Source: Heptranchias perlo
Lineage: Eukaryota
Reading direction: 5' to 3'
Length of the DNA: 64,000 bases
Assembly: GCF_035084215.1 (NCBI RefSeq)
Contig: NC_090327.1
Location: forward strand, 64,976,001 to 65,040,000
Positions 11-40,232 of the stretch are shown piece by piece. Numbering within the stretch: the stretch's first letter is position 1; the number at the start of each line of letters is the position of its first letter. The position numbers and the translations under genes were made by a program. The notes under the pieces are model-generated. The model ran no database searches. It worked only from the letters and a program-made list of their open reading frames with translations, and had not been told where the DNA came from.

Positions 11-250
11 GTGATCTCAGGATTACTACCAGTGCCACGTGCTAGTGAGTATAGGAACAGAAGAATAGACAGGATGAATGCGTGGCTGCAGGGATGGTGT
101 AGGAGGGAGGGATTTAGATTCCTGGGACATTGGGACCAGTTCTGGGGAAGGTGGGACCTGTACAAGCGGGACAGGTTACACCCGAGCAGGACCGGGACCA
201 ATGTCCTCGCGGGGGTGTTTGCTAATGCTGTTGGGGAAGGTTTAAACTAG
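11..250 (+). mobile_element. CR1 LINE ORF1, C-terminal end (SGNH esterase-like domain)
   Basis: Translation ISGLLPVP...NAWLQGWCRREGFRFLGHW...LYKRDRLHPSRTGTNVLA is typical of the CR1 ORF1 esterase C-terminus (DxxH motif); lies directly upstream of CR1 ORF2. Confidence 0.85.
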
Positions 251-432
251 AGTGGCAGGGGGATGGGAAGCTGAGAGGGGAGTCAGAAGGGAGTAAAGTT
301 GAGAGCAGCAAGAGAGGGGAAGACCCAAGGGAAATTTACAATACAAATAGTACAAACAGTTGTTCAAGAACAAGTGAAAGGGAAAAGCGTAGAGCAGCAG
401 AAAGAAAGTGTACTTTAGACACTACAGATAAA

Positions 433-3243
433 GTGAAAACTAGAAGGTGTAAGGCGATTAACCCAGCATCAAAGCTGAAGGTCAGGCTGGGGAGTGTGGC
501 CCAACTAAGAGTTCTATATACAAATGCACGGAGTATAAGGAATAAATTAAATGATCTACAGGTTCAAATTCAAATTGGAGGGTATGACATGATAGCTATC
601 ACTGAGACATGGCTGCAGGATGGTCAGGATTGGGAACTAAATATACCAGGTTATAAGGTCTACAGGAGAGATAGGGAAAATAGAAGAGGGGGAGGAGTAG
701 CCTTAATGATTAGAGATGAAATCACTTCAATGATAAAGGAGGATATAAGGAGAGGTAAGCAGCCAACAGAGACCTTATGGGTTGAATTGAGAAATAGGAA
801 AGGATCTAAGACTACAGTGGGAGTTGTGTATAGGACGCCTGGCAGCAGCTCTGAAGTGCTAGATTGTATAAATGCAGAGATTAGACAAGTGTGTAAGAAA
901 GGCATAGTGGTCTTAATGGGGGACTTTAACCTTCACATAGATTGGGAAAAGCATACTAGCAACTGTCAGAAAGGTAGTGAATTTCTTGTGTATTCGGGAT
1001 AGTTTTCTACAGCAGTATGTCCTAGAGGCAACAAGGGGGCGAGACATATTAGATTTAGTAATGAGTAATGAACCAGATTTAGTTAATGGCTTAACTGTGC
1101 GTGAACATCTATCCAATAGTGATCATAACATGATCGAGTTCAATGTAGTGTTTGAAAGGGAAGAAAGTGAATCAGCTGCTAAGATTCTAGACTTGGGTAA
1201 GGCCAACTTCAAAGAGATGAGACAGAGACTGTCCACAGTAAACTGGGCAAATCTGTTAATGGGTAAAACGACTGATGATCAGTGGGAAATGTTTAAAGAA
1301 ACATTTAACGTGATACAGAATCGGTTTATACCCCTGAGGGGCAAGAACTCTATTTGCCAAAAAAAACAGCCATGGACAACTCAAGAGGTAAGGGACAGTA
1401 TAAGACATAAGGAAAGGGCATACAAAAAGGCAAAAAATGGCACAGATCCTGGCGAATGGGAAAGATACAAAGATCAACAAAGGGTCACAAAACAGATAGT
1501 AAGAGCTACAAAAAGAGTGTATGAAAAGAAACTTGCATGGGATATCAAAACCAATATGAAGAACTTTTATAGTTATATTAGGAAAATAAAGAGGGTGGTC
1601 AGGAGCAGTGTTGACCCCTTAAAAACTGAAAGTGGGGATATTGTCATTGACAATGGGGAAATGGCGGACATGTTGAACAATTACTTTGTGTCAGTATTTA
1701 CAGTAGAAAAAGAGGATAGCATGCCGGAAATCCCAAGAAAACTAATATTGAATCGGGGACAGGGACTCGATAAAATTAATATAAGTAAAGCAACAGTAAT
1801 GAAGAAAATAATAGCACTAAAGAGTGACAAATCCCCAGGACCAGATGGTTTCCATCCCAGGGTTTTAAAGGAAGTAGGTGAGCACATTTCAGATGCCCTA
1901 ACTATAATCTTTCAAAGTTCTCTAGATTCAGGAACTGTCCCTCTGGATTGGAAAATTGCACATATCACTCTGCTTTTTAAGAAAAGAGAGAGAGGGAAAC
2001 CAGGGAATTATAGATCAGTTAGCCTAACATCTGTTGTGGGGAAAATGCTGGAATCTATAATTAAGGATAGGGTGAAGGAACACCTCGAAAATTTTCAGTT
2101 AATCAGAGAGAGCCAGCATGGATTTGTGAAAGGTAGGTCGTGCCTGACAAACCTGATTGAATTTTTTGAAGAGGTGATTAATGTAGTGGACAGGGGAATG
2201 TCAATGGATGTTATTTATATGGACTTCCAGAAGGCATTTGATAAGATCCCACATAAGAGACTGTTAGCTAAGATAGAAACACATGGAATCGAGGGAAAAG
2301 TACGGACCTGGTTAGGAAGTTGGCTGAGCGAAAGATGACAGAGAGTAGGGATAATGGGTAGGTACTCACATTGGCAGGATGTGACTAGTGGAGTCCTGCA
2401 GGGATCTGTCTTGGGGCCTCAATTATTCACAATATTTATTAATGACTTAGATGAAGGCATAGAAAGTCTCATATCTAAGTTTGCTGTGTAGATGAAAACA
2501 TAAAATTACAAAGTGATATTGATAGATTAGGTGAATGGGCAAAACTGTGGCAAATGGAATTCAATGTAAACAAATGTGAGGTCATCCACTTTGGATCAAA
2601 AAAGGATAGAACAGGGTACTTTCTAAATGGTAAAAAGTTAAAAACAGTGGATGTCCAAAGGGACTTAGGGGTTCAGATACATAGATCATTGAAGTGTCAT
2701 GAACAGGTGCAGAAAATAATCAATAAGGCTAATGGAATGTTGGCCTTTATATCTAGAGGACTGGAGTACAAGGGGGCAGAAGTTATGCTGCAGCTATACA
2801 AAACCCTGGTTAGACCGCACCTGGAGTACTGTGAGCAATTCTGGGCACCGCACCTTCGGAAGGACATATTGGCTTTGGAGGGAGTGCAGTGTAGGTTTAC
2901 TAGAATGATACCTGGACTTCAAGGGTTAAGTTACGAGAAGAGATTACACAAATTGGGGTTGTATTCTCTGGAGTTTCGAAGGTTAAGGAGTGATCTGATC
3001 GAAGTTTATAAGATATTAAGGGGAACGGATAGGGTGGATAGAGAGAAACTATTTCCGCTGGTTGGGGATTCTAGGAGTGGGGGGCACAGTCTAAAAATTA
3101 GAGCCAGACCTTTCAGGAGCGAGATTAGAAAATATTTCTACACACAAAGGGTGGTAGAAGTTTGGAACTCTCTTCCGCAAACGGCAATTGATACTAGCTC
3201 AATTGCTAAATTTAAATCTGAGATAGATAGCTTTTTGGCAACT
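433..3243 (+). mobile_element. CR1 LINE ORF2 (APE endonuclease + reverse transcriptase), near full length but disabled and 3'-truncated
   Basis: APE motifs YTNARS, ITETWL, GGGVA, VVYR, MGDFN (433-1002); RT motifs KSPGPDG, NYRSVSLTS, SQHGF, DFQKAFDK (977-2338); C-terminal RPHLEYC...FYTQRVV (2554-3243). Frameshift near 990, TGA at 2336-2338, deletion through the FADD motif near 2486, no 3' tail. Confidence 0.95.
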
Positions 3244-3244
3244 G

Positions 3245-4377
3245 CTTGGAGCATTTAGGAGGAGTCCTGCTCATCCCAGCTTCACATTCAGGTAAATATT
3301 TTATAACAAACTTACCTCTTTGATGGCAGCCTCCAATGGTTCCTTTACAGGCCTAAAATGGAGCCATAGCGTCCAATATTGCAGGCGATGTGCGTACACG
3401 CATTCCATGCCAGAAGTGTGCTGCTCGACATATTGGTAAAGGCAGAAAAAGAAGCAAAATTGGGCTGCCCTAAATGCAACCACCTGTGGCATAACTAGCA
3501 GTCCTTAAAGGCACCGCTGGAGACCGCCACCAAAAAGGTAAATTTGTGATAAAATACTTACCTGAATGTGGAGCCAGGATAAGCAGGAGTCCTCCTTACT
3601 GCTCCACTGTGGTGCCGAAGACCGTTGCTGGCTCCCGCTCTGCCCCCTCCTGATCGACCCCCTTCCGATCGCCCCCCTCCCTCCCTATCGTTCCCCCCCC
3701 TCACCCAATTGCTTCCACCTTCCTGAATGCCTCCCCCTCCCAATAGCTCACCTCCTTCCCTTCTGATCGTTCCCCCCCCACCCAATCAACTCCACCCTCA
3801 TAATTGCCTCTCCTCTCCTGATCGCATCCCCTCCCCCAATTGTCTCCCCCCCCAATTGTCTCCCCCCCCAATTGTCTCCCCCCCCATTCGTCTCCCCCCC
3901 ATTCGTCTCCCCCCCATTCGTCTCCCCCCCCCATTCGTCTCCCCCCCCCATTCGTCTCCCCCCCCCATTCGTCTCCCCCCCCCATTCGTCTCCCCCCCCC
4001 ATTCGTCTCTCCCCTCCCGATCGTCTCCCCCTCCCGATCGTCTCCCCCTCCAATCGTCTCCCCCCTCCTGATCATCTCCCCCCTCCCGATCGTCTTCCCC
4101 TCTCCTGATCATCTTCCCCTCTCCCGATCGCTTTTTCCCTTCCGATCGCCTCTCACTCTCCTGATTGTTCCCCCCCCCCAACAATCGCCTCTCCCCACTC
4201 CCGGGACTGACCTGCGGACCAGTGTCGATGATGCGGCGGCCCAAAATCCAATGTTAATTCGTCAGTGAGCTGCATGGAGACGCCCAGCATGCATCTGGCC
4301 AACACGAGTGCGCCTCGGGCCAACACGTTCCAGCGCAGAAACTGACCCCAGGCTGGCACAAACCAATTTCTAGGCCT
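3245..4377. mobile_element. Partial non-autonomous Harbinger-type TIR element
   Basis: Ends in ACCAATTTCTAGGCC, the reverse complement of a left terminus like GGTCTAGAAATTGGT at 47973; shares internal AGGAG..TCCT and CTTACCT blocks with other copies in the window. Confidence 0.55.
3640..4200. repeat. C-rich minisatellite, ~18-20 nt unit (CCCCCCCATTCGTCT / CCCCTCCCGATCGTCT)
   Basis: Tandem units directly visible, most regular at 3830-4060. Confidence 0.9.
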
Positions 4378-6971: not shown

Positions 6972-7064
6972 AATGATTCTAGGAGAAACACCAGAGGAAA
7001 ATTCAGTCTGATTCCACTGAGAAAATCAACTGGTTAATTAAAAGTAAATGGTCAATAGAGATGC

Positions 7065-8473
7065 AGGGAAAAGCCTGGGAACTACAGACCGGTGAGCCTG
7101 ACATCTGTAGTGGGTAAGTTGTTAGAGGGTATTATGAGAGACAGGATCTACAGGCATTTGGAGAGGCAGGGACTGATTAGGAACAGTCAGCATGGTTTTG
7201 TGAGAGGAAAATCATGTCTCACGAATTTGATTGAGTTTTTTGAAGGGGTAACCAAGAAGATAGATGAGGGCTGTGCAGAAGACGTGGTCTACATGGACTT
7301 CAGCAAAGCCTTTGACAAGGTACCGCATGGTAGGTTGTTACATAAAGTTAGATCTCACGGGATCCAAGGTGAGGTAGCCAATTGGATACAAAATTGGATT
7401 GACGACAGAAGACAGAGGGTGGTTGTAGAGGGTTGTTTTTCAAATTGAAGGCCTGTGACCAGCGGTGTGCCTCAGGGATCGGTGCTGGGTCCGCTGTTAT
7501 TTGTTATTTATATTAATGATTTGGATGAGAATTTAGGAGGCATGGTTAGTAAGTTTGCAGATGACACCAAGATTGGTGGCATTGTGGACAGTGAAGAAGG
7601 TTATCTAGGATTGCAACGGGATCTTGATAAATTGGGCCAGTGGGCCGTTGAATGGCAGATGGAGTTTAATTTAGATAAATGTGAGGTGATGCATTTTGGT
7701 AGATCGAATCGGGCCAGGACCTACTCCGTTAATGGAAGGGCATTGGGGAGAGTTATAGAACAAAGAGATCTAGGAGTACAGGTTCATAGCTCCTTGAAAG
7801 TGGAGTCACATGTGGATAGGGTGGTGAAGAAGGCATTCAGCATGCTTGGTTTCATTGGTCAGAACATTGAATACAGGAGTTGGGATGTCTTGTTGAAGTT
7901 GTACAAGACATTAGTTAGGCCACACTTGGAATACTGTGTACAGTTCTGGTCACCCTATTATAGAAAGGATATTATTAAACTAGAAAGAGTGCAGAAAAGA
8001 TTTACTAGGATGCTACCGGGACTTGATGGTTTGACTTATAGGGAGAGGTTGGATAGACTGAGACTTTTTTCCCTGGAGAGTAGGAGGTTAAGGGGTGATC
8101 TTATAGAAGTCTATAAAATAATGAGGGGCATAGATAAGGTAGATAGTCAAAATCTTTTCCCAAAGGTAGGGGAGTCTATAACAAGGGGGCATAGATTTAA
8201 GGTGAGAGGGGAGAGATACAAAAGGGTCCAGAGGGGCAATTTTTTCACTCAAAGGGTGGTGAGTGTCTGGAACGAGCTGCCAGAGGCAGTAGTAGAGGCG
8301 GGTACAATTTTGTCTTTTAAAAAGCATTTGGACAGTTACATGGGTAAGATGGGTATAGAGGGATATGGGCCAAGTGCAGGCAATTGGGACTAGCTTAGTG
8401 GTATAAACTGGGCGACATGGATATGTTGGGCCGAAGGGCCTGTTTCCATGTTGTAAACTTCTATGATTCTATG
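7065..8473 (+). mobile_element. 5'-truncated young CR1 LINE (RT domain, 3' UTR, tail)
   Basis: ORFs 7092-7448 and 7455-8393 are in one frame, separated by a single TGA; motifs GVPQGSVLGP and FADD; ends in CTATGATTCTATG, the CR1 octamer tail. Confidence 0.95.
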
Positions 8474-8789: not shown

Positions 8790-9107
8790 GCTCCAATGTT
8801 GTCCGTTTGTCTCTCATTTCTAGAAGGCTATTAGTCATGCTGGGATACAGTTCCACCAATAACAGCAACATCTGGTACATCATCCAAATGGCTATTCTTC
8901 ATTTGTGAGCCCAGACAGTGATTGTGCCCAACTATTCAATTGTGAGTGGCATTGCAGCTTCACCTGATGGTAGCACAGGTTATTAAGTATCCAACAGGAT
9001 CAGAGATTCTGTCTGGCTTTCCCACCACCACCCCTCCCTCCTGAGGGTGCTATACCACTTCCATCAGTACTACCCTAGCTGAGATCAGCTAATTTAGCAC
9101 AGACCAG
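8790..9107 (-). mobile_element. AmnSINE2-like tRNA-derived SINE, 3' part (split by insertion)
   Basis: GCTGAGATCAGCTAATTTAGCACAGACC and ATGGCTATTCTTCATTTGTGAGCC match the reverse complement of the AmnSINE2 consensus as I recall it; continues after 11247. Confidence 0.6.
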
Positions 9108-11244
9108 GGGCACAATTTTTACTTGGAGCCGGGAACTCAGCGGGTGGGTAGATTTTCGCATAGGAAACCCGGAAGTCAAGTGAGTGCGTCAGAATCTGCA
9201 ATCGCAACTCAATTGAAGGCATTTATGTTTGCTTCCGTGTTTCCCACGCGACAGCCAGCCAGATTAACAGGCTGCCTGCCAGTCGGGAGGGAAAGCGGCC
9301 AGGGAGCGGATGCCAGTTAAGTCTGAGATTGTGGGGTGGGGGGTCTCGGCCATCGGTCGGGGGGGGGGGGGGGTCTTGGCCATCGGGGGGGGTCTCGGCT
9401 ATCGGGGGGAGGCTCAGCCATCGAGGTGGGGGGGGGGGGGTCTTGGCCATTGGGGGGATCTTGGGGCGAATGTTGGTTTAAATCCTAACCAGCAATTTCT
9501 GAGATGGGGGTGATTGGGCGTGAATGAGAGTTTGTGATCCTATGCCAGAATTTGTGCTCAGTGGTGGGGAGGAGAAGGTTTGTTGTCCTATCCAGCAATT
9601 TCTGTTATGTTTTTGTGGTCCTAAGCTATGGGGATGCATTGGGCTTATGGTCATTTTTTGGGTGGTTATTCTCGGATATATCATCATTGGCTTGATTCCC
9701 AATTATTGCGCTGTGGATGGGATTTGATTTGTGTTTTTTTTGCTCAGTTGAGTGGGGGCCACATTTATTATTCTGCTGGGGGATGTAGAAAGTGATGTAA
9801 TGGTGGTGCTGCGGGGGAGATATTTATTTTCATTGGTTGCAGTTTTTGCTAGTTGATCTCCCAAGGCATTGCACGTGGGGAGTCAAAACCAATGAAACTT
9901 TTTAGGTCAACCAAGGGAGATATTTGAACCAAGACAGGCTGGGGAGGGGTGAAAGAAAGGGAGAGATTTGAGAACAGTGAAGGCAGACTAAGTGAGGGGG
10001 ATAGGAAGGGTAGGGAAGGGAGAGGCAGTGAGGGGGAGGAGAGGGGAGAGAAGGCATGAAGAGCTGGCTCCAGATTCAGGCCAGGAATAAGGAACATATA
10101 CCAGGGTGAGCAGGAGAGAAACGATTTGATGATCAGTGCAATATAAGTAACATTCATATTTTGAACTTCCTAACAGCACCAGCACGAGCATAAGCATTAA
10201 AAGATGAAAAGCATAACAGATGTCCTCGACAGTTATTTTCTGCTGAATATGGAAAATTTGGTGGATTCAATCAAAGGGCCTGTCAACCACAGCTGAGGGA
10301 AGACTCGGGAAGGACCTTTAGGAACTCTGGTGTGGAAAGTAGATTTATTAGAGCAGATATGACAGAGAAGAAGAAAATTAGAGAAAGGGATGAAGTATTT
10401 ACTGGAGTGGGATGGGAAGAAACACAATCCAAATAGTTGTGGGAGACCGAGCTTATAATAAATAATTATGGAAAGCCGATTGCCAAAAATGGAGAGAGAT
10501 AGAAAGACAGAAAAAGAAGGAAAGAGATGAACCACACAAAAGCAAAGAAAGGATGAGAATTGGAAACATATTTGGAGTGCTACAATTTATATTAACAAAA
10601 TAGCCAAGTTCTTATAACATTTTATGATTCTTTCAAGTAACTTGACTGCAGAATATTCCAATATTTCAGATTTTGCCATCATTCTTAAAAATATAAGCGT
10701 GTGCACATACTCAAGATTGATTTAGGATGTTAAAAATTGATTATTTTCTGAATCTTTAATTTAATTGAGTGATGGCTAGAAGAGTGATTAGAGGCGCAAC
10801 ACAAAGAACTCTCAGTCAAACGTTTGCCTGAGAGAACTGAGAGACCAGCTGCAATGCCTGAGCTTTTATTGAGAAGTGTCAATCACAGGTTTAAAGGGCC
10901 AAATTAACTTTGGCTGCATCTCGCCTCCATTTCAATGGCAAGATTCAGAAGCTATGGTAAACCCATGCAGGTGAAATAAAATTAATTTCAGGCTCAGAAT
11001 CAACAAAAAATTACCTACGTCAAGTATTTCAACTGGGTAAATTGTCCCTTTAACGATCCGTCTGCCAGCGCTAATTTGGGATGCGACTTCCGGGTTTCAA
11101 CTGCGGGCGCCCATCCAAACGCATCCACGTTAAACCCAGATGTGGGCGCGTGGGAGCCAGGTTGCGCTCGCGCTTGAAAAAGCTATTATTTTAACCTCCC
11201 GCCCGCCCCCAACCCATTCGTTCTTTTGGGTTAAAATTAACCCC
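9108..11244. mobile_element. ~2.1-kb non-autonomous PIF/Harbinger-type element with 3-bp CAG target-site duplication
   Basis: TIRs GGGCACAATTTTTAC / GTTAAAATTAACCCC; CAG at 9105-9107 and 11245-11247; removing it rejoins the SINE. Confidence 0.7.
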
Positions 11245-11325
11245 CAGGGATCAGATCAAGAATCAAATTGGAGACTTTTCTGGTCTGTAAGACTCAATAC
11301 CACACCATACGTTGGGACATTGCAG
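11245..11325 (-). mobile_element. AmnSINE2-like SINE head (5' part)
   Basis: GACTTTTCTGGTCTGTAAGACTCAATACCACACCA resembles the reverse complement of the tRNA-like AmnSINE2 head. Confidence 0.55.
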
Positions 11326-12084
11326 GAGCTTTTGATAAATTTAATTTTATCACCAGGAATCAAATCCACTGTAATCCATGGTCTGGTGGTGCAATGCCAG
11401 ATCCAGACCTTTAGACCACCATTAGAAACTGTGCAAAAAGCATCTCTCAATTTACCATATTTTTGGAATAAACTAAATAATTTTAATTTCTTTGTAGTTT
11501 TAATATTATGCAAATGCATTCATCACTAGTTTTAAAATGAATTCTGGCAACCACATAAACAAAATTGCTTTTACAGCAGTACACATACTAGCCCTGCTCT
11601 GAATGGCCACAGGACTGAAAGCATGGAGAATGGGAAGACAGTCTGGTGCATCAGGATATTGTTCCACTTGTGTGACGGGAAATGGGGGGTGATGGGGAGA
11701 GGGTGAATAAACTGTCAGGACAAATGCTGAGGTGAGGGAAAGCAAACATATTATTTGGCTTTTATCAGTGTAACTCCTCAGTACTGTGATTGGTTACAAA
11801 GAATTTGTTCCATTCCCCAACTCCATCATCCCTCCCATAGTTAACTATTAATGTACTAGAAATGTACAATTTAGTTAATTATTTCCAAGCAAAGTTACAC
11901 TGAGAATGGGGAGCCTTGGAGACCTTGCAATCCTGACTGTTCAGAAACGTCTGGCTTGTTTGCCCTGTCTGTGGTTAAAACAAAATAATATTCTGTATGG
12001 TTCTCTTTATTCTAATGCCGCTCTAAAATAAATCTCAAAACTATGTATTCCAGGGAAAAGCTACAATTATTTAGAACTCTCATT

Positions 12085-12090
12085 TTTATT
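12085..12090 (-). terminator. Candidate oprk1 polyadenylation signal (AATAAA)
   Basis: TTTATT on + strand ~1.6 kb past the stop, at the end of an AT-rich repeat-free stretch; alternatives near 12006 and 12960. Confidence 0.4.
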
Positions 12091-13615
12091 TAATAACAAT
12101 TTCACAAACATATTCCAAATCAGGACAACACATAAATTCTTACATGTCTGTAAAAACACTGCAAATATTTTATGTCATCAAAATAACCAACAGTTTGTAA
12201 CACCAGAGAAAAATAAATCTAAAACATTTAAATGAAGCACACCCACAATTCTGAACACTGATAAACAGCAAGACCATTGTCAGTCACATTATATACCACA
12301 ATTCTTTTACTTCAATTAAATGCAAAATATTTGAATATATGAATATGTTACAAAATATTCATAGCAAAGATAAAATACTTAAAATGTTGCTTAGCTTGTT
12401 TTTAATTCACAGTTACTTCTGAATACACCTGGAGTTAAAAACAAAGTTGTATCAGACACTGATATTTCAGAGTGAGACATATCGATTCTAATTTACATGA
12501 TGGATGGAAAATCGTGATTTCCCAATATGTCCCCTCCTGGCAGGTAAGTGATGTTCCTGGCCATGAGTGCACATTTGTAAAATGGATCCTAATAAGCTGT
12601 CTGTCCATTTTGTTTAAACCTTTCTGTTGCACATTATTTTACAAAATAAGAGCTTTTGTTTTGTTGATCCAGACTTGATTGCCTTTTCCAAAGCCCAATT
12701 TGTTATCTGAATCTCAGTTCTAGAATACAGACGTTGACATTTACACTATGTTTGAGCCATATGTTCATTAAATGTATCACTTCATCCAAATTGCGATTGA
12801 TGCTCAAAGACTTTTGGTCTTTGTTAGCATAAAACTATTAGAATGCAAGAATATTTTTTACAAGTAAAAGCATTTTGCTCTTGGTTTGCAAATTGAGCTA
12901 TTTCTATAAAATGGCATTCCACTCACTGTATTTGGACTTTAATATATTCAATTTCTGTTTTATTTATAGACTGGAAATGTGCAATAAGTTTTATGTATCA
13001 ACACTGATATATAGGTAATAACACATTTTATGACATGTATGCTTTTGTGTATGATTGACTGTTGGTGGCTTCTTTTTTTAAAATCGGACTCAAAATTCTC
13101 ACGAAAGATTTGTAATTATTTTGTATCACAAATATGCAATGAAAGCATTTTTGGAAAAAAAACATTAGAATCATATAAGTAAAGACTCCAAATGTATCCA
13201 TTGCAGCACAGTCTCTTTAATATGCCTGCCAAGCTAATTTGATATGGCCCATTTCCCAATGAGATGGGGATGTAAGTCTTAATTAACAAACTGTAGGACA
13301 GCTTAACTATAGGAAAAAAAAATCCCTATTTGCTGAAAATAATACATTTCTATGAATTTAACATAGGCTGAATGTATTAAGTTCCAAATACAATAATTGC
13401 AGGACTGTTTCAGAATCAATGCCAATTATCCAGCTTAGATGCTAATTTGGCAAGCATCTGCTATTTTGCACTGAAGATAAGAATATTAAAATGAAACTCA
13501 CTTTCATGTAAATATTGACCATTTGATCCCTTATTGATGAGCACAGGCAGGCCAAGTCACTGCATTTGTTGTAATGCTAAATAGACCTCATTTTTTTCAA
13601 TCAGCAGAATAAGAA

Positions 13616-13705
13616 TTAAACTGCAGAAGTAATTTGAGTCAGACCTAAATCCTGAAAGTCATCTCTCGCTTGTGGTGAGAAAGATAACATTTCCGCTGTT
13701 AGTCA
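13616..13705 (-). CDS. oprk1: Putative stop-codon-readthrough C-terminal extension of kappa opioid receptor (X-LTAEMLSFSPQARDDFQDLGLTQITSAV*)
   Basis: In frame after TGA (13705-13703) in TGA-CTA context; 28 sense codons to TAA (13618-13616); resembles the known human OPRK1 readthrough tail (from memory). Confidence 0.7.
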
Positions 13706-14229
13706 TACCTGCCGGTTTGCATTCCCTGTGCTACTGCGGAACAATGTAGCATTCTGTGTGGCATTCCTTACTCGGTTGCTGGTCTGCAACTCCAGCCTCA
13801 ACCCCGAGGAACAGCAAAAATCTTTGAAGCACCTTTTAAAATTTTCATCTAGAAAAGCATAAAGGATGGGGTTAAGGCTGCTGTTGGTATATCCAAGAGC
13901 TACTGAGAAATAATAACAGGCAGATACAGCTGTGGTTTCTGGCACATTTACCAAAGCTTTGACCAATACAAAAATGTGAATGGGAGTCCAACAGATGATG
14001 AACACTGCTACAACAATGAGGACCATCCGTGTGATTCGGCGTAAGTTTCTATCTTTCTCCCTGGAGCCAGACAGCATTCTCACGCTCTTCAAACGCAAGA
14101 TCATCAAGCTGTAGCATATAGAGATGATGAGAACTGGGATGACAAAGGCAAAGACGAAAACACAGATTTTCAGCACGGTGTCCCAGTACCAGTAGGGATG
14201 TGGGAACTGCAGTGCACATTCGACAATAC
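13703..14229 (-). CDS. oprk1: Kappa opioid receptor, last coding exon (ECL2, TM5-TM7, C-tail)
   Basis: Acceptor TTCTTATTGAACAG|GT at 14230; reads (G)[24 protein letters not shown]...[23 protein letters not shown]...CWTPIH...[23 protein letters not shown]...NRQV*; 527 nt, phase consistent with the upstream exon. Confidence 0.96.
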
Positions 14230-15588
14230 CTGTTCAATAAGAAAAACAAAAGTCAACGACTATGACCAAATCTACAATCGAAGCTAAATCTCGTTAACTG
14301 AGATGGATATCATTTCATGTTACTTTTTTCAGATTATCTTCAATCAAATATAAAGAGTTGTACTGGGAATTTAGTGGAACCAAACAAAACATCCATGTAA
14401 TAGAATGCCCAATTAAGATTGTCCCAATTACCATCTGGAATACTAATAGGAAAATAGTACAGATCCTGTAGGAAGATGGTATATCCATTTACGTATTGTG
14501 GTAAATTATAGTAAAAACCTTCAATTAAAAAAAATAATTGAACTGATGTGTGTTTAATGGGTATAGCATCATTCATGCTGAGACCTGATTCCATAAGTCA
14601 GGTTTGGTAATTGACTATACGCAAAAAATAATATAGTAGTTCTGCTCGGCCTTCAGCCTTTTGTGTCAAGATTCAAGTGTTGCAACTTGTAACCAAATGA
14701 AGATGATTTTGGAGACTGATTGTCTTGCAGGTCAGTCAGGTGAAGGTCAGCTTCAATGTATTTTTGGTGAGCAGATGTAAAGTGGACACATTTTGAATTA
14801 TTTTGGAAAAAAATATTTTACCTCCATATTCTATAAAGTAATATATGGTGACAATTTGAAAATGGGTTCTGGTGTCTTTCTCTTCCATTTTTTCAAATAG
14901 ACTGACATTTGTTGATGAGTTGCAAATGATACATATGTTGAAATTGTGCCACCTACCTATGGTTTATCAATGAGTTAATTTCAAAATATTGTGTTTCAGT
15001 TCCTGTTGCCAAGGGAACACTAGAATACACAGAACCTGCACTAGAAAGGCCAGTGCCTGTAAAGTCACAGGAGTCCAATTCTAGCTGTTTATGATCTCAC
15101 TGCTATTCACACCAAAAGGGTGACTCATAAGTTTTATATTTTCACAAGTAGCAAAAATAGTCCTTGTTTTCCTGTTCACTTCTCCAAGTAATTCATTCAG
15201 TTCTCATTTTCCTGTTTTCCTCTACCAGCAAGTGATTTAGGAGTATGTCTTCCTCTGTTCACTAATCAAGAGAAAATATAGATGTGAGTATAAAGCATTG
15301 TTTTCCACTTTCTACTCATATCTACATTTTCAGTAAAATTAGCAAATAGAGGAAACATATCCTTTAGTAATTTATTTTGGAGCATTAGTTAGATGGTGGG
15401 GAGCGGGGGCCCAAATTTTCAATTTGTATCCCTGATGCACAAGGCTCTGTAAAGGGAATGTAATTTTGTAAAATTACTCCTTAAGTGTTAGTACAGCAAT
15501 AATCGCACAGCACAATTTCTAAGCTCATGCTACATATCTAATATAACCATTACAGTGCTATAGATTAACATGAGTATTAAGAGTCTGT

Positions 15589-17238
15589 GGGCTATAAATT
15601 CGGCTGTGTAACACCCATTTTTTAGGCGCTATGCAGCCTCCTAAGGTCCCAAAATGGTGTCCAGAATGCGCGCGTATGCTTGGCGCCAAACGCCATCTTG
15701 GTAAAGGCGTTTGCACATGCGCAGATAACGAATGCCAGCAGCATGTAAAGAGAATATGCATTAGATCAATGTGCAACACTGATTTAAAGGGACAGATATG
15801 ATTTTGGAACTCAATGCTCCAGCTAATGCACTGTCTTAACCACGCACAGTTGAACAGGTCGTAGATGGCCTGGAGGACCCCCCACCAGTGTTATTTAAAG
15901 GGATCATGCAGGATTTACAGGTTAATTGCTGGATTATTGCTTCTGGCTGCTGATGCATTTGTACCTGTTTTTGGAGGTCTCCTATACTTGAATACTAGGA
16001 CTAGGGGACATAGCCTAAAAATTAGAGCCAGGACTTGCAGGAGTGACGTTAGGAAATGCTTCTTCACGTAAAGGGTGGTAGAGGTTTGGAACACTCTTCT
16101 GCAAACAGCAGTTGATGCTAGCTCAATTGTTAATTTTAAATCTGAGATTGATAGATTTTTGTTAACCAAAGGTTTAAGGGATATGGGGCTAAGGCTGGTA
16201 TATGAAGTTAGGTCATAGGTCAACCATGATCTCATTGAATGGCTGAACAGGCTCGAGGGACTAAATGCCACTGTCACTTGCTGCCTCCTGTTATGCATCA
16301 TCTTCTCCTGCAGGAAAGCGGGACGTGTGTCAGTGAGTGTCCAGCAAGATGTTTGGGTGATGTGCCTGTCATGGTTGAATAGCTGCCAGTGTGTGACCTG
16401 TGAGTTGTGGGTGTGCGGCTTGAAACAGTGGTCATGTGTGAGGGTGAGAGGAAGCATCTGATTGGAAGAGTTGAGTACTGATTGAAAGAGTTTGTCGGTA
16501 GGTGCGTGATGGGGGTGTAGTGGGTGGAGCAGTGGATTCGGCTAGTGGTGCAGTTGGTGGGAGACACCACTTGACAATTGATCTCACTCACCTTGACCAC
16601 TCTTGTCAAAGCATTGAACTTCTTCCTGCAATGCATCCACGTTTGTGTGCTATGCGCTTGGCATTGATTTCGTCCCCTATTGCCTCCCACTGCCTCTTGA
16701 GCATTTGTCTGGAGGGCCTCTTGCCCCCGCTACGGATATAGGATGCCCCTCCTTCTGTCCAGATCCTGCACCAAAGCCTTTAATGCATCAGCAGAAAACC
16801 TTGGTGTATGATCTCTCGCAGGCCTGGTACAAATTCAGATCGACAGATTGGTGAGGTCTGTCGTGCAGATTGGAGCGTGTGGGATATAGTAGTGTGCAAC
16901 TTTTATTCAATATTTTAACAGTTTGTAAACATGGGGACAGAACTTACATTTGCAATGTCTGATCTCTGTTCAGACTTGTATGGACCCATATCTTATATTT
17001 TGCAAATAAGGGGTGCAGGCTGCCTTTAGGAGGTATGAGCCACTCACAAGATATCGGGGGCCCCCTGCTGGTAAGAAGCCATTCAACAGCGCAACTAGGC
17101 CTGGCTGCTCGCCAGAATCAGGTAAATGACCAGGCAGCACGAATCTCATGTGCTGCCTGCATTGCAACGACCAGGCACAAGTTAATCGCGCACCGCGACC
17201 CCCGCGCCCGGATTCGGGGGATATCGAATTTAACTCCC
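15589..17238 (-). mobile_element. Harbinger-derived element with Myb/SANT-like ORF remnant
   Basis: Imperfect TIRs GGGCTATAAATTCGG / TCGAATTTAACTCCC; minus-strand TWMHCRKKFNALTRV resembles the QCRKKFNDL Myb-like helix and is followed by a GTGAGT donor. Confidence 0.6.
15990..16268 (+). mobile_element. CR1 3'-end fragment nested in the Harbinger element
   Basis: TRGHSLKIRAR...FFT; nucleotide sequence closely similar to 3070-3243. Confidence 0.85.
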
Positions 17239-20660: not shown

Positions 20661-21013
20661 CATCCCTTGTTCCAGTGGCCCCCAGCACTATAACAGGTAT
20701 GCCAATAACTGAGGCAAGGAGCCAGATGCAAACATTTATTACTTTTGCCTTTAAAGGAGTGCGGAAGTCCAATGCCTTCACTGGATGGCACACAGCAATA
20801 TACCGATCAACACTCATCATTGTCAATGTGAAGATGCTGGTAAACATGTTGTAATAATCAATGGAGACCACTATTTTACACAGCACATCTCCAAATGGCC
20901 AGGACCCTATTAAATAGTCGGCACTCTGGAAAGGCATTGTGCTTGTTGCTAGAGCATCTGCTGCAGCAAGATTGAAAATATAGATATTGGTAGCTGTCTT
21001 CATCTTGGTGTGT
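20661..21013 (-). CDS. oprk1: Kappa opioid receptor, middle coding exon (ICL1, TM2-TM4)
   Basis: Acceptor TTCTTTTTAG|A, donor G|GTGAGT; 353 nt; [26 protein letters not shown] (Asp3.32), [24 protein letters not shown]. Confidence 0.97.
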
Positions 21014-22647: not shown

Positions 22648-24944
22648 TTGCCTAATCTTGTTAGAGATAGCCTTATTGTCCCACAGGAAAACCATTGCAG
22701 TATCTTGCCATTTAAAGTGTCATTCTATTCCATTTGCACAGCATGACATACAGCCAGGCAGACTTTCGAAGGCACCCTGGTCCCACGTCAAAAGATAGGT
22801 CCCAACCTGAGGGTTGTGACTTTGATTGATGGCTATTTCTAAATTCTTTGAAAAAAGGGCAGGACCTTTAATAGGCTGGAACCCTCTGCGATTGACAAGT
22901 CAGTGGGCAGAGACCTTACAGTACAGATTGATATTAGCAGTCCTCAGAGCAGTCAGAATGTATATGAACTTTGCAGCCAGTGCCAAAAGGCATGAACGTT
23001 GCTGATCATAATCTCTACCCTGTATTATCTGATAATATATTAAGAAAGTACTCTTTGTCCCTAATTCATGCTCAGGTGCTCACAGTGTTGATACAATCGA
23101 CTAAAACTGGGAGGAAAATAGTCATTGACTAAAATTATTGTACTTCTATGTCAAGTAAATTAAAATTAAGACTAAATTTTCTAAAATAAGACCAATATTT
23201 GAGATAGAGAGAAACTAAAGCCAAACTTTAAATGATTTCTAGGGCTAAAGTAACTCTGGCGTTGGGGGCTATTCAATCCCACCCCTTTACAGGTTGACCC
23301 TGTCACTCTGTTAGCATATTGTACAGAGACAGATGCAACCAGCTCACTGCTACATATGTCCCTGTGCCTTCTCAAAGTGTAGAGGCTTACACAAAACATT
23401 TGAGTGTGTTGTTCTAAATACATTTTTAAAAATTTAAAAATAGGTAACATTTCATTGGATCCCAAACAAAACTGTAGTTAACAACTTTGTTATTATTTTT
23501 AATATTTATGATTGAATTTTTAGCTAGAAAACCATTTCTTAATAAAGCACCTAGGCAGTTTAGCATAATCTGTATTTTAAAGTATGAACTACAGTTTAGT
23601 TACAGATTATGGATATGGTTTATGAGTAGGTATAATGAATAGCATGGCTAGTGTGCATTGAAGCAACTGTGGGTAGAGCTATTTTTCTTTCAAGATCTTA
23701 TTTTTCACATTACTTATACCAGCCTTTGTGGGAAAATGATGATTACACTCTTCTCAAAATAGTGTTGGATTTAAATAAGGTTATTTTGTAACCTATAGAA
23801 TACACAGATTAAAGCTGACACCTGAGTTAACCATTTTGCTTTGGGAGGGCAACAGTGGTGTTAAATATGATCCTCAGTTTGGCTCCTGTACTCATTAGGC
23901 TGGGGTTGGAGATATTAGAAATGTCAAACTGTTTTAAGTAATTTTGACAACTTGCTGCTAGTAAGCACAATGAACGGGTCAGAACCTTTGTTATGTAAAA
24001 TAGAAAATCTACATGGTGCATTAAAAATTGTCGCAACAAGCTGCTTGCACCTACTGCTCATGAGCTCTGTATGTGAAGGAGACTTACAGAAGAAAGTACT
24101 TTTATTATTAAAGCCGAATATGGCCCTATTAGCAAAGGGCATATTCAATTTTAAGGGAAACATACAGCTGTTATGATTCTTTCCCATTAAATGTTGAACA
24201 GAATTCTACACTCTCAGTTCTTTGGTTCCGTTGCAGGGAAGTATCCACCAGTCTGGTTCTAGTGCCAGAGTGATTTATTGACTCAGTATCAAACTGATTG
24301 AGTGACTTGAATATTAAAAGCACATTTTAGTAAACCAGAGCAATAAAAGCCAGAGCTATTCAGAAGAAAAATAATTAACAAAGTATTCATCATTATATGT
24401 CCTCAAATATGATATTTAGCTCATATGAGATGTAGATGTTATTCTTCACTGTTTAAAACTATGTATTAATAGTAAGTCCTGCATTTCCTTGTCCAATTTT
24501 GAATAAAAATAAGAAGCTTAATCCTTTGTAGTTGAGTGAGTGTTTTTCTGTCTGAATGGAACACATTGTAAAATAGCACTAAAAATTGACCATACAATTA
24601 TTGATAAAACTGATATTTGAACATTGCACTTTGTGCATTTAAATTGGTATAAATATTAAACAAAGTGTAGAAACTTCATTGTAAAATGTTTCTAATTTGC
24701 AGGCAGAGTGATATAAATAATATGGTGAGAATGTGATTTTATTTGTGCTTTGTTAATGATATCATTTAAAAATCATCAACCCTTAAGGAATGATTGAGGG
24801 AACAAACAAGTGAAAAACACATTAAAAAGTGGCATTTTATTTAATAGAACTAGCCAATCTACCATTGCATTGCAGACCAAATAATTTAAATTAATTTTTC
24901 AGGTCAAGCAGGGTTGCAGAGTGGGGGATAATGGAACCAACCTG

Positions 24945-27900
24945 GAGGAGTGGGAAGCGGCAATAGGAGAAAGAAAAGGCAAATAGGAGGAGGGGACAGG
25001 AGTGGAGGCATGGAGAGGAAGAGGAAAGGAGGTTGGAGAAAACGGGAGGGGGAAGAGGGAAAGTGGAAGGGTAACGAGAGAGAAGGCAGAGAGGAGATGA
25101 AGGAGAAAACAATTGAAGAGGTGGTGACAGGGGAGGGGAAAGGGGAGTGTGAGAGGAAGGGGGGAAGAGAGGAGGTGGGGGAAGAGAGGAGGTGGCGGGA
25201 AGAGGGGAAGAGAGGAGAAGGGGGGAAGAGAGGAGGTGGGGAAGGGGGAAGGGGGGGGAAGGGGGGGAGGGGGGGGAAGAGAGGGGAGGGGGGGGAAGAG
25301 AGGGGAGGGGGGGGAAGAGAGGAGGGGGGGGAAGAGAGGAGGGGGGGAGGGGGAAGAGAGGAGGGGGGGGAAGAGAGGAGGGGGGGGAAGAGAGGAGGGG
25401 GGGAGGGGGAAGAGAGAAAGGGGAAGAGAGGAGGGGGAGGGGGAGGGGGAAAGGGGAAGAGAGGAGGGGGGAGGGGGAAAGGGGAAGAGAGGAGGGGGGA
25501 GGGGGAAAGGGGAAGAGAGGAGGGGGAGGGGGAAAGGGAAAGAGAGGAGGTGGGGAAAGAGAAAGAGAGGAGGTGGGGAAAGAGAAAGAGAGGAGGGGGG
25601 GAAAGAGAGGAGGTGGGGAGGGGGGGAAAGAGAGGAGGTGGGGAGGGGGGGAAGAGAGGAGGTGGGGAGGGGGGGAAAGAGAGGAGGTGGGGAGGGGGGG
25701 AAAGAGAGGAGGTGGGGAGGGGGGGAAAGAGAGGAGGTGGGGAGGGGGGGAAAGAGAGGAGGTGGGGAGGGGGGGAAAGAGAGGAGGTGGGGAGGGGGGG
25801 AAAGAGAGGAGGTGGGGAGGGGGGGAAAGAGAGGAGGTGGGGAGGGGGGAAAGAGAGGAGGTGGGGGGGAAGAGAGGAGGTGGGGGGGGAAGAGAGGAGG
25901 TGGGGGGGGAAGAGAGGAGGTGGGGGGGGAAGAGAGGAGGTGGGGGGGGAAGAGAGGAGGTGGGGGGGGAAGAGAGGAGGTTGGGGGGGAAGAGAGGAGG
26001 TGGGGGGGAAAGAGAGGAGGTGGGGGGGGGAAGAGAGGAGGTGGGGGGGGGAAGAGAGGAGGTGGGGGGGGGAAGAGAGGAGGGGGGGAAGAGAGGAGGT
26101 GGGGGGGGGAAAGAGAGGAGGTGGGGGGGGGGAAGAGAGGAGGTGGGGGGGGGAAGAGAGGAGGTGGGGGGGGGAAGAGAGGAGGTGGGGGGGGGAAGAG
26201 AGGAGGTGGGGGGGGGGAAAGAGAGGAGGTGGGGTGGGGTGGGGGGAAGAGAGGAGGTGGGGGGGGGGAAAGAGAGGAGGTGGGGTGGGGTGGGGGGAAG
26301 AGAGGAGGTGGGGGGGAAGAGAGGAGGTGGGGGGGAAGAGAGGAGGTGGGGGTGGGGGGAAGAGAGGAGGTGGGGGGGGGGAAGAGAGGAGGTGGGGGGG
26401 GGGAAGGGAGGAGGTGGGGGGGGGAAGAGAGGAGGTGGGGGGGGGAAAGAGAGGAGGTGGGGGGGGGAAAGAGAGGAGGTGGGGGGGGGAAAGAGAGGAG
26501 GTGGGGGGGGGAAAGAGAGGAGGTGGGGGGGGGAAAGAGAGGAGGTGGGGGGGGGGAAAGAGAGGAGGTGGGGGGGGGGAAGAGAGGAGGTGGGGGGGGG
26601 GAAGAGAGGAGGTGGGGGGGGGGGAAGAGAGGAGGTGGGGGGGGGGAAAGAGAGGAGGTGGGGGGGGGGAAGAGAGGAGGTGGGAAGAGAGGAGGTGGGA
26701 AGAGAGGAGGTGGGGGGAAGAGAGGAGGGGGGGGGGAAGAGAGGAGGGGGGGGGGAAGAGAGGAGGGGGGGGGTGAGAGTGGGGGGGGGAAAGAGAGGAG
26801 GGGGGGGGAAGAGAGGAGGGGGGGGGGAAGAGAGGAGGGGGGGGGGAAGAGAGGAGGGGGGGGGAAGAGAGGAGGGGGGGGAAGAGAGGAGGTGGGGGAA
26901 GAGAGGAGGTGGGGGAAGAGAGGAGGGGGGGGAAGAGAGGAGGGGGGGAAGAGAGGAGGGGGGGAATGAGACGAGGTGGGGGAAGAGACGAGGTGGGGGT
27001 GGGGGTGGGGGTGGGGGTGGGTGTGGGGGGGGGTGTGGTGGGAGAGGGGGTGGGGGGGGGTGTGGGATGAGAGGGGGTGGGGGTGGTGGTGGGGGAAGAG
27101 AGGAGGTGGGGGTGGGGAAGAGAGGAGGTGGGGGAAGAGAGGAGGTGGCGGTGGGGGAAAGAGTGGAGGTGGGGGGGGGATTGAGTGGTGGTGGGGGGGG
27201 GAAGGAGGTGGTGGGGGGGGGGAAGTGTGGAGGTGGGGGGGGGTAAGTGTGGTGGGGGGGGGGGGAAGTGTGGTGGTGGGGGGGGAAGTGTGGTGGTGGG
27301 GGGGGTTGAGTGGTGGTGGGGGGGGGAAGTGTGGTGGTGGGGGGGGGTTTGTGTGGTGGTGGGGGGGGGTTTGTGAGGGGTGGGGGGGGGAAGTGTGGAG
27401 GTGGGGGGGGGGTTGTGTGGAGGTGGGGGGGGGGTTGTGTGGTGGGGGGGGGGGGGAAGTGTGGAGGTGGGGGGGGGGGTTGAGTGGAGGGGGGGGGGGG
27501 GTTGTGTGGTGGGGGGGGGGGAAGTGAGGTGGTGGGGGGGGAGTGTGGTGGTGGGGGGGGGGAAGAGTGGTGGTGGGGGGGGTTGTGTGGTGGGGGGGGG
27601 AAGTGAGGTGGTGGGGGGGGGGAAGGATGAGGTGGGGGGGGGGGAAGAGAGGAGGTGGGGGGGGGAGGTGTGGTGGGGGGGGGAAGAGAGGTGGTGGGGG
27701 GGGGGATGTGAGGAGGTGGGGGGGGGGGAAGTGTGGAGGTGGGGGGGGGGAAGTGTGGAGGTGGGGGGGGGGTTGAGAGGTGGTGGGGGGGGGGAAGAGA
27801 GGTGGTGGGGGGGGGGAAGTGAGGTGGTGGGGGGGTGGGTTGTGTGGTGGTGGGGGGGGGTTGTGTGGTGGGGGGGGGGGAGTGTGGTGGTGGGGGGGGG

Positions 27901-30900
27901 TTGTGTGGAGGTGGGGGGGGATGTGAGGTGGTGGGGGGGGGAAGTGAGGAGGTGGGGGGGGAAGTGAGGTGGTGGGGGGGGGGAAGTGTGGAGGTGGGGG
28001 GGGGTTGTGTGGTGGTGGGGGGGGGTTGTGTGGTGGTGGGGGGGGGATGTGTGGAGGTGGGGGGGGGAAGAGTGGTGGTGGGGGGGGGAAGAGTGGAGGT
28101 GGGGGGGGGGGTTGAGTGGTGGTGGGGGGGGGGGTTGTGTGGGGTGTGGGGGGGGGGGTGGTGTGGGGGGGGGGTGGTGGTGGTGGGGGGGGGGGGAGTG
28201 TGGTGGGGGGTGGGGTGGGGGGGGGAGAGGAGGTGGGGTGGGGTGGGGGAGGAGAGGAGGTGGGGTGGGGGGGAGTGTGGAGGTGGGGGGGGTGGTGGGG
28301 GGGGGATGAGAGGAGGTGGGGTGGGGTGGGGGGGAGAGAGGTGGTGGGGTGGGGGGGGGGGTTGTGTGGTGGGGTGGGGTGGGGGTGGTTGTGTGGTGGT
28401 GGGGGGGGGGGGGGAGGTGTGGTGGTGGGGTGGGGGGGTTGTGAGGAGGGGGGTGGGGGGTTGTGTGGTGGGGGTGGGGGGAGTGTGGGGGGTGGGGGGG
28501 AGAGTGGAGGTGGGGTGGGGGGGTTGTGTGGTGGGGTGGGGGGGATGTGTGGTGGTGGGGGGGGGGGAAGAGAGGTGGTGGGGTGGGGGGTTGTGTGGTG
28601 GTGGGGGGGGGGGATGAGTGGAGGTGGGGTGGGGGGGAGAGAGGAGGTGGGGTGGGGGGGGTGAGAGGTGGGGGGGGGGGAGGTGGGGTGGGGGGGGGGA
28701 GAGAGGTGGTGGGGTGGGGGGGAAGAGAGGAGGTGGGGTGGGGGGGAAGAGAGGAGGTGGGGTGGGGGGGAAGAGAGGAGGTGGGGTGGGGGGGATGAGA
28801 GGAGGTGGGGTGGGGGGGAGTGTGGAGGTGGGGGGGGAGAGGTGGTGGGGGGGGAAGAGAGGAGGTGGGGGGGGAAGGTGAGGGTGGGGGGGGAGAGAGG
28901 AGGTGGGGGGGGTGAGGAGGTGGGGGGGGAGGAGGTGGGTGGGGGGGGGTGGGGGGGGTTGAGTGGGGTGGGGGGGGGGTGTGGTGGTGGGGGGGGGGAG
29001 GAGGTGGTGGGGGGGGGGAGTGAGGGGTGGGGGGGGGTGGAGGAGGTGGGGGGGGGGAGGTGGTGGGGGGGGGGAGAGAGGTGGTGGGGGGGGGAGAGTG
29101 GTGGTGGGGGGGGTTGAGAGGAGGTGGGGGTTGAGGTGGGGGGGAAGAGAGGAGGTGGGGGAAGAGAGGAGGTGGGGGAAGTGAGGGTGGGGGAAGAGAG
29201 GAGGTGGGGGAAGAGAGGAGGTGGGGGTGGGGAGAGAGAGGAGTGGGGGTGGGGGAAGAGAGGAGGTGGGGGGGGGGAGAGAGGGGGTGGGGAGTGGTGG
29301 GGGGAGGGGGGAAGAGAGGTGGTGGGGGTAGGGGGAAGAGTGGAGGTGGGGGGGGGAAGAGTGGAGGTGGGGGGGGGAGAGTGGAGGTGGGGGGGGAGGG
29401 GGGAAGAGAGGTGGTGGGGGTAGGGGGAAGAGTGGAGGTGGGGGGGGGGGGAAGAGTGGAGGTGGGGGGGGGGAGAGTGGAGGTGGGGGGGGGGAAGAGT
29501 GGAGGTGGGGGGGGGAAGAGAGCTGGTGGGGGGGGGGAAGAGAGCTGGTGGGGGAAGAGAGCTGGTGGGGGGAAGAGAGCTGGTGGGGGGAAGAGAGCTG
29601 GTGGGGGGAAGAGAGGTGGTGGGGGGAAGAGAGGTGGTGGGGGGGAAGAGAGGTGGTGGGGGAAGAGAGGTGGTGGGGGGGAAGAGAGGTGGTGGGGGGG
29701 AAGAGAGGTGGTGGGGGAAGAGAGGTGGTGGGGGGAGGGGGAAGAGAGGTGGTGGGGGGAGGGGGGAAGAGAGGTGGTGGGGGAAGGGGGAAGGGGGGAA
29801 GAGAGGTGGTGGGGGGAAGAGAGGTGGTGGGGGGAAGGGGGGAAGGGGGAGAGAGGTGGTGGGGGGAAGAGAGGTGGTGGGGGAAGGGGGAGGGGGAAGA
29901 GAGGTGGTGGGGGGAAGGGGGGAAGAGAGGTGGTGGGGGGGAAGAGAGGTGGTGGGGGAGGGGGGAAGAGAGGTGGTGGGGGGGTGGGGGGAAGTGTGGT
30001 GGTGGGGGGTGGGGGGAAGAGAGGTGGTGGGGGGTGGGGGGGAGAGAGGTGGTGGGGGGGGGGGAAGAGTGGTGGTGGGGGGTGGGGGGAAGAGGAGGTG
30101 GGGGGTGGGGGAGAGAGGTGGTGGGGGGGTGGGGGAAGAGAGGTGGTGGGGGGAGAGGTGGTGGGGGGAAGAGAGGTGGTGGGGTGGGGGAAGAGAGGTG
30201 GTGGGGGTGGGGGAAGAGAGGTGGTGGGGGGAAGGGGGGAAGAGAGGGATGAGGGTGGTGGGGGGAAGGGGGAGTGAGGTGGTGGGGGGAAGTGGGAAGA
30301 GAGGTGGTGGGGGGAGGGGGGAAGAGAGGTGGTGGGGGGAAGGGGGAAGAGTGGTGGTGGGGGGTTGGGGGTTGAGAGGTGGTGGGGGGAAGGGGGGAAG
30401 AGAGGTGGTGGGGGGAGGGGGGAGTGTGGTGGTGGGGGGAGGGGGGTTGAGGGTGGTGGGGGGAGGGGGAGGAGGTGGTGGGGGGAGGGGGGATGGGGAG
30501 GTGGTGGGGGGAGGGGGTGGTGGGGGAGGGGGTGGTGGGGGGAGGGGGGTGGTGGGGGGAGGGGGTGGTGGGGGGGGGTGGTGGGGGGGGAAGGTGGTGG
30601 TGGGGGGTTGGGTGGGGGTGGGGGGGAAGGGGGGTGGTGGGGGGGGAGGTGTGGGGGGGGGTGGTGGTGGGGGGTTGGGGGTGGTGGGGGGGGGGGAGGA
30701 GGTGGTGGGGGTGGGGGAGGAGGTGGTGGGGGGAAGGGGGGAGGTGGGGGGGGGGGGAAGGGGTGGTGGGGGGGGGGAAGAGAGGTGGTGGGGGAGGGGG
30801 GAAGTGAGGTGGTGGGGGGAGGGGGGAAGGAGGTGGTGGGGGGAGGGGGTGAGTGGTGGTGGGGGGTGGGGGGAGGAGGTGGTGGGGGGAGGGGGGAGAG

Positions 30901-32554: not shown

Positions 32555-32754
32555 NNNNNNNNNNNNNNNNNNNNNNNNNNNNNNNNNNNNNNNNNNNNNN
32601 NNNNNNNNNNNNNNNNNNNNNNNNNNNNNNNNNNNNNNNNNNNNNNNNNNNNNNNNNNNNNNNNNNNNNNNNNNNNNNNNNNNNNNNNNNNNNNNNNNNN
32701 NNNNNNNNNNNNNNNNNNNNNNNNNNNNNNNNNNNNNNNNNNNNNNNNNNNNNN
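32555..32754. other. Assembly gap (200 N)
   Basis: Run of 200 Ns at the end of the G-rich array. Confidence 0.99.
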
Positions 32755-39969: not shown

Positions 39970-40232
39970 CTGACGATCACGTACATAACCAGACAGTTGC
40001 CCACCGAACCCACCACAAAAATGACCGAGTAGACAGCGGTGATGATGATGGGGATGAGAGTGCCCACGGTGCCGTTCCTGTGAAAGTCGAGGAAGTCGGT
40101 GCTGTTTTCCCAGTAGTAAGAAATGGGTGGGAAAGTGCTGTTAGGGATCACGCCAGGGCTACATTCGTCAGAGGAGTGTAACATACACTCGGAACCCATA
40201 TCTTCCCTAGAAATCACCACTGGGGTACCCAT
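39970..40232 (-). CDS. oprk1: Kappa opioid receptor, first coding exon (N-terminus, TM1)
   Basis: Acceptor CTTTTTGTAG at 40241, ATG at 40232 in strong context (ACTATGG), donor AG|GTAAGA; MGTPVVISRE...IPIIITAVYSVIFVVGSVGNCLVMYVIVR; three N-glycosylation sequons; 263 nt. Confidence 0.95.

Follow-up and report, generated by a model that had tools for sequence, protein, structure and literature searches.

The kappa opioid receptor gene (oprk1) of the shark Heptranchias perlo ends in a UGA-CUA stop followed by 28 in-frame sense codons, and this stretch is probably the shark copy of the OPRK1 readthrough tail, carried by a minority 409-residue form of the receptor with a predicted PDZ-type end. Readthrough of the human kappa and nociceptin receptors has been known since 2014, with its function listed as unknown (10.64898/2026.07.14.738498). 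That OPRK1 has this tail, conserved as far as bony fish, has already been published, which makes the observation less novel than the initial annotation of this DNA had supposed; kappa readthrough is known, and the shark member is a modest extension of it. New here are the finding of all four opioid receptor tails within a single genome, a CUAA variant of the signal, and the spread of that variant among sharks.

The oprk1 gene and its stop codon

Within the window, i.e., the whole 64,000-nucleotide stretch of DNA analyzed, oprk1 lies on the minus strand, and three coding exons with GT-AG borders (Table 1) encode 380 amino acids with 100% identity to the named H. perlo protein P0005. The public label of this protein is "delta-like," and several other fish and shark kappa records likewise bear the name "delta-type opioid receptor-like" in public databases. 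Kappa receptors rank first among its PDB matches (536 bits versus 505 for mu), and in a tree of last-exon proteins (36 rows) the product groups with whale-shark and lungfish kappa. Because of this ranking and grouping, we read the gene as kappa despite its label; on sequence grounds it is the OPRK1 orthologue.

The last exon closes with GTA TGA CTA ACA, the TGA occupying 13705-13703 of the minus strand. Twenty-eight sense codons follow (13702-13619, LTAEMLSFSPQARDDFQDLGLTQITSAV) before a TAA at 13618-13616, and full readthrough would give 380 + 1 + 28 = 409 residues. The gene, coordinates, peptide, and both receptor lengths (380 and 409 residues) given by the initial annotation are correct; the stop and open frame that it described were also seen, on the minus strand, the strand being absent from its account.

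Open frames of this kind arise readily. Among the 2,215 TGA triplets of the window, 510 are followed by at least 28 open codons, 25 by CTA, and 6 by both, so the open frame by itself is weak evidence and the argument depends on conservation. The tail is missing from every annotated receptor protein that we checked. A protein search with the tail region for a human readthrough isoform returned 23 candidates, none at an E value of 10 or better, and no 409-residue kappa member appeared among the matches listed for the kappa-profile search and its clusters (at most 15 per cluster).

Elsewhere in the window, 226-3258 and 7059-8393 of the plus strand hold LINE-type elements that are broken but have endonuclease and reverse-transcriptase domains. 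The first coding intron holds an 8-kb low-complexity tract (~24900-32900), G-rich on the plus strand and with a 200-base assembly gap, whose stop-free frames of >2,600 codons are not genes; the tract may be an assembly artefact. Short frames at 42068-42469 (plus) and 16298-16729 (minus), which we take by their look to be Harbinger-type transposon fragments, had no Pfam match.

Table 1. Coordinates of oprk1 features in the window and of the other shark opioid receptor loci
Feature	Sequence	Coordinates	Strand	Basis or remark
oprk1 coding exon 1 (ATG at 40232)	Window	39970..40232	-	GT-AG exon model; translation equals P0005
oprk1 coding exon 2	Window	20661..21013	-	GT-AG exon model
oprk1 last coding exon, first stop included	Window	13703..14229	-	Exon model; X21 contig begins at 14230
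UGA-CUA leaky-type stop context	Window	13700..13705	-	Six bases unchanged in 4/4 related shark runs
+4 base	Window	13699	-	A in window species; G in sharks E and F
28-codon in-frame tail, predicted readthrough extension	Window	13619..13702	-	Conserved versus L013 and P0326
Last 12 codons of tail, most constrained part, S-A-V end (predicted class I PDZ-type)	Window	13619..13654	-	pN/pS 0.17 versus L013
Second stop, TAA	Window	13616..13618	-	One-base deletions 16-18 bases past TAA in related sharks
Possible RNA hairpin, +15 to +45 after UGA (weak evidence)	Window	13658..13688	-	10 pairs shared with L013
Shark mu, L002	C8	2854528-2855133	-	TGA CTAG, 28-codon tail
Shark delta, L003	C29	39980825-39981430	-	TGA CTAG, 29-codon tail
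Shark nociceptin, L004	C22	21704275-21704874	+	TGA CTAG, 28-codon tail

Conservation of the kappa tail

The shark tail was compared at the DNA level with that of L013, a teleost-like kappa locus found in a metagenome record, which has TGA CTAG and a 28-codon tail. The in-frame BLOSUM score of the two tails is 61, against -2 and -1 out of frame, and the untranslated region (UTR) beyond the tail scores -20 to -23. Across the tail, pN/pS is 0.38 (Fisher p 6e-5), and in the last 12 codons it falls to 0.17, with 7 of 8 shared residues encoded by different codons. The tail is also better conserved than the 36 coding residues that precede the stop in all four kappa comparisons from distinct lineages: 13/28 versus 4/36 identities for L013, 17/28 versus 12/36 for the bird-like protein P0326, and 14/28 versus 6/36 and 9/28 versus 4/36 for two further lineages.

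A profile search yielded 42 proteins, 5 of which span the whole profile and were called with the UGA as Trp; together with their cluster members, these supplied bird-like, lizard-like, and teleost-like kappa tails. Every kappa tail read has 28 residues, which upholds the expectation that frame and length are kept in orthologues, here from shark to teleost-like, lizard-like, and bird-like kappa. The bird-like and lizard-like tails also fit, in length and pattern, the approximate human tail given in the initial annotation. No printed copy of the human tail was found by motif in the literature, nor any mention of it in the supplements of PMC4359377, and the prokaryote and viral sequence collections gave no loci. 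Judged from these comparisons of sequence, the long-range conservation of the tail is of the protein-coding type.

Tails and free ends across the opioid receptor family

When the genome was searched with the last exon plus tail, each of the shark's four opioid receptor genes aligned through a single internal TGA, and each has TGA-CTA and a tail of 28-29 codons. The mu, delta, and nociceptin tails share a (L/V)TQIT motif toward their ends and are related to the kappa tail, and the first stop falls 49 residues past the same helix-8 anchor in all four receptors. TGA-CTA was absent from all eight related somatostatin-type GPCR genes of the same genome. Two related single-exon GPCR genes, L007 (C3:64901237-64901665) and L008 (C22:21753890-21754300), lie ~88 kb from kappa and ~49 kb from nociceptin, respectively; by synteny they are probably neuropeptide B/W receptors. 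PDB matches yielded no name for either, and synteny was left out of the evidence.

Metagenome records supplied ten vertebrate opioid loci: seven have the signal and a tail, one (L016) ends before the stop, and two (L021 and L022) are without. Besides L013, TGA CTAG and a tail occur at a bird-like mu locus (L014), two fish delta loci (L015 and L020, the latter omitted from the tail comparison because its tail repeats that of L015), two fish nociceptin loci (L017 and L018), and a mammal-like OPRL1 locus (L019), whose tail is of the published kind and shares the LTQ-T motif. Four protein-only fish delta tails agree with the delta tails read from DNA. The two fish nociceptin tails differ by nine synonymous and no nonsynonymous changes (p 5e-6). 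The mu tail is weakly constrained between shark and bird-like loci (pN/pS 0.69; 0.94 over the last 12 codons, without gaps).

The presence of tails in the mu, delta, and nociceptin paralogues means that the tail likely predates the duplications that gave the four receptors, and we infer that the ancestral single opioid receptor gene had a leaky stop and a tail. The initial annotation had placed constraint on the kappa tail since the jawed-vertebrate ancestor: protein-type conservation from shark to bird-like kappa stands, but that date is likely too late and, with mu, delta, and nociceptin also tailed, too narrowly drawn.

The later history of mu appears to involve splicing. Two fish mu loci (L021:1012-1023 and L022:1627-1638) read CAG GTA GAT, with no stop behind the terminal Val and no tail, and several unnamed fish mu proteins also continue with unrelated ends. 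These observations suggest either an independent loss or splicing at the position used in birds and mammals. In named mu proteins of birds and mammals, the switch from one tail to another comes immediately behind the matching Gln, whereas an unspliced bat form continues past the Val; mu exon 4 is reported to appear first in chicken (PMC8534031). At the bird-like mu locus (L014:2029-2112), the leaky stop and tail, the latter with a long predicted stem (z -1.8), lie directly 3' of the exon-4 splice donor. Birds may thus make both spliced and readthrough mu tails. The last codon before the leaky stop would have become the mu splice donor, and the signal would then have been lost in mammals; the presumed loss from mammalian delta is taken from papers, not from DNA. 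We regard as evenly poised the fuller scenario in which a leaky UGA of a single ancestral vertebrate receptor put a PDZ-binding tail on a fraction of the molecules, all four shark receptors, bird-like mu, and fish delta retain this arrangement, and mammalian mu gave it up when that last codon became the exon-4 donor.

All nine distinct tails read from DNA end in S/T-x-hydrophobic (S-A-V in shark kappa), an ending found in only 2 of 235 annotated receptors. This short pattern matches the consensus for class I PDZ ligands. Counted from the TQI motif, the end lies one residue nearer or farther in some tails; that the end motif is kept while internal spacing shifts points to recognition of the free end, and PDZ ligands are anchored there. 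Eight protein-only tails were trimmed at a Trp where a second UGA is presumed and are not independent support for the PDZ end. Given readthrough, we lean toward a role for the tail as a readthrough-gated PDZ anchor.

It is rather unlikely that readthrough is real and the tail is something other than a PDZ ligand, i.e., a phosphorylation or degradation signal, or a stretch constrained in part by an RNA hairpin in its first half. The tail is rich in Ser and Thr, which have been suggested as desensitisation sites (PMC4132726); against a signal of that kind alone, the Ser/Thr two residues from the end and the hydrophobic last residue are kept in 9/9 tails. As for RNA, hairpins are predicted at +10 to +54 in most tails, and the tails fold with a mean z of -1.8 versus synonymous shuffles, compared with -0.4 for 72 upstream coding segments, in a window picked after the folds had been viewed. 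Shark mu and delta are without these hairpins, and no consensus structure was found across all ten tails. The hairpin at +15 to +45 of shark oprk1 has 10 pairs in common with L013 and two two-sided changes, a score reached by 131 of 500 shuffles in a comparison of two sequences only. In related sharks, a change at 13686 turns a U-G pair into C-G, and one at 13657 breaks an outer pair.

Probable readthrough in the shark and its likely strength

The UGA-CUA stop of shark oprk1 is likely read through by a small share of ribosomes, a near-cognate tRNA competing with termination at UGA-CUA(G), which would yield a 409-residue receptor that ends in the predicted PDZ-scaffold-binding motif. That human OPRK1 undergoes readthrough, as the initial annotation asserted, is published: reporters gave ~13%, UGA-CUA alone gave 1.5%, and 12 bases past the stop suffice (PMC4132726). 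Other reporters gave 4-5% (PMC12233894), and a preprint gives 1.39% (10.64898/2026.07.14.738498). In the blots described in PMC4132726, the full-length HA-OPRK1 readthrough product was not resolvable. The residues inserted at the UGA of human MDH1 are Trp and Arg (PMC5133446).

The leaky context proposed for the shark gene, UGA-CUA(G), is correct for UGA-CUA and not for the next base: the strict UGA-CUAG motif is absent because +4 is A. Window oprk1 is the only one of 10 DNA loci with A at this position, the nine others having G. Among close relatives, sharks C and D share the A, and E and F have G. At +8, the window species alone has C, and all five other organisms compared have T. Contigs from four related shark runs span the stretch in one piece, with no indels in the tail and one deletion 16-18 bases past the second stop. 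Five tail sites vary, all in codons 2-16; one change is synonymous and four alter the residue, a ratio that equals the neutral expectation. The last 12 codons are unchanged in all four runs, as is UGA-CUA. The synonymous bias predicted by the initial annotation is seen against the teleost-like locus and not among close sharks, a comparison without power because the adjacent UTR differs about as little. Farther into the 3' UTR (13277-13400), organisms C, E, and F lack a 122-base stretch.

These base changes bear on whether the tail, although ancestral and functional in vertebrates, belongs to a readthrough signal that is decaying in this shark lineage, with little or no long form made here; this is the main rival, and we think it unlikely. 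When the first four bases were varied in the context of human OPRK1, 764 of 765 variants lowered readthrough, CUAA included, and T performed best at +8 (10.64898/2026.07.14.738498). As A at +4 and C at +8 both lower human OPRK1 readthrough, the shark signal may be weak, and the four residue-altering changes among five in sharks also speak for decay. Against decay, the UGA-CUA, the tail length, and the last 12 codons are the same in 4/4 runs, UGA-CUA alone still supports 1.5% readthrough, CUAA raises readthrough in the MAPK10 context, the only one in which it does so (10.64898/2026.07.14.738498), and 5 of 73 MAPK10 orthologues are without G (PMC4132726). We accordingly expect shark readthrough, if it occurs, at the low end, in a few percent or less of receptors. 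The tail would then anchor or sort this minority receptor pool via PDZ scaffolds, and its Ser/Thr residues are possible phosphorylation sites.

Three further explanations were weighed. Translation of a separate short open reading frame by re-initiation at the Met of codon 5 is highly improbable. This Met is present in the shark kappa tail, and the human OPRK1 and OPRL1 tails entered a conservation screen of short 3' UTR frames via an in-frame Met, but the same report calls them misclassified (PMC4568590); since no more than 3 of the 9 distinct tails read from DNA have Met 5, against 9 of 9 with UGA-CUA, we rejected this reading. There is equally little chance that the conservation reflects a splice donor, CAG|GTATGA, of the sort through which bird and mammal mu genes join a further exon, and that the tail is intron sequence. 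The window stop does read CAG GTA TGA, and bird and mammal mu proteins switch tails after the matching Gln. Runs from five other species, however, have no joint here; delta, nociceptin, and teleost-like kappa loci have no such donor and are still tailed; and synonymous conservation at a distance of 60-84 bases would find no explanation in a donor, which together largely refute the idea. The X21 contig (guessed to be RNA, organism F) begins at the exon edge at 14230 and runs unbroken through the stop, the tail, and beyond, a course that fits an unspliced passage through the stop on mRNA; the RNA status of runs is a guess, and run X6 ("RNA?") also covers intron. Selenocysteine at the conserved in-frame UGA is scarcely credible, as named orthologues stop here without Cys and no Rfam match (SECIS) was found up to an E value of 1 in 9000-14300.

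The readthrough reading has close counterparts in known systems. Human OPRK1 likewise has GUA as its last sense codon, UGA-CUA, and a 28-residue tail with conservation strongest near the end; it was traced to bony fishes only, and CUAG was called universal in OPRK1/OPRL1 and the six bases UGA-CUA universally conserved, whereas the shark has A at +4 (PMC4132726). The paralogous tail of human OPRL1 has the LTQ-T motif common to the shark tails. OPRL1 reporters gave 17-31% readthrough (PMC5513072), and readthrough was inferred to be older than the split of kappa and nociceptin (PMC4132726). In contrast to that picture, shark mu and delta, bird-like mu, and fish delta are tailed too, and the mu and delta tails shift the likely origin one duplication earlier. 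Readthrough of OPRD1 and OPRM1 was stated in 2020 to be unreported (PMC8159799), and in the literature surveyed, to which most subscription journals were closed, we found no publication that describes a tail for mu or delta, or a PDZ end.

MDH1x, LDHBx, and AQP4x likewise use UGA-CUA to unmask a C-terminal tail that relocates the protein; that of MDH1x is a peroxisomal signal (PMC5133446), whereas the signal predicted for the shark is a GPCR terminus of PDZ type. Close relatives of the opioid receptors, somatostatin receptors 1 and 4, have T-T-L as their ordinary C terminus in the shark, also a class I PDZ-type end and shared with human SSTR1. The somatostatin receptor end is on every molecule and the opioid receptor end would appear only upon readthrough; the likeness is one of motif.

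If the PDZ-anchor reading is true, the readthrough forms of the human kappa and nociceptin receptors would be PDZ-anchored receptor pools, and loss of the last residue would abolish scaffold binding and alter the localisation or recycling of the long form. The readthrough signal is not confined to kappa and nociceptin: nonmammalian mu and delta genes carry the signal and a tail, a finding of relevance to studies of opioid receptors in fish and birds and to the origin of the spliced mammalian mu tails.
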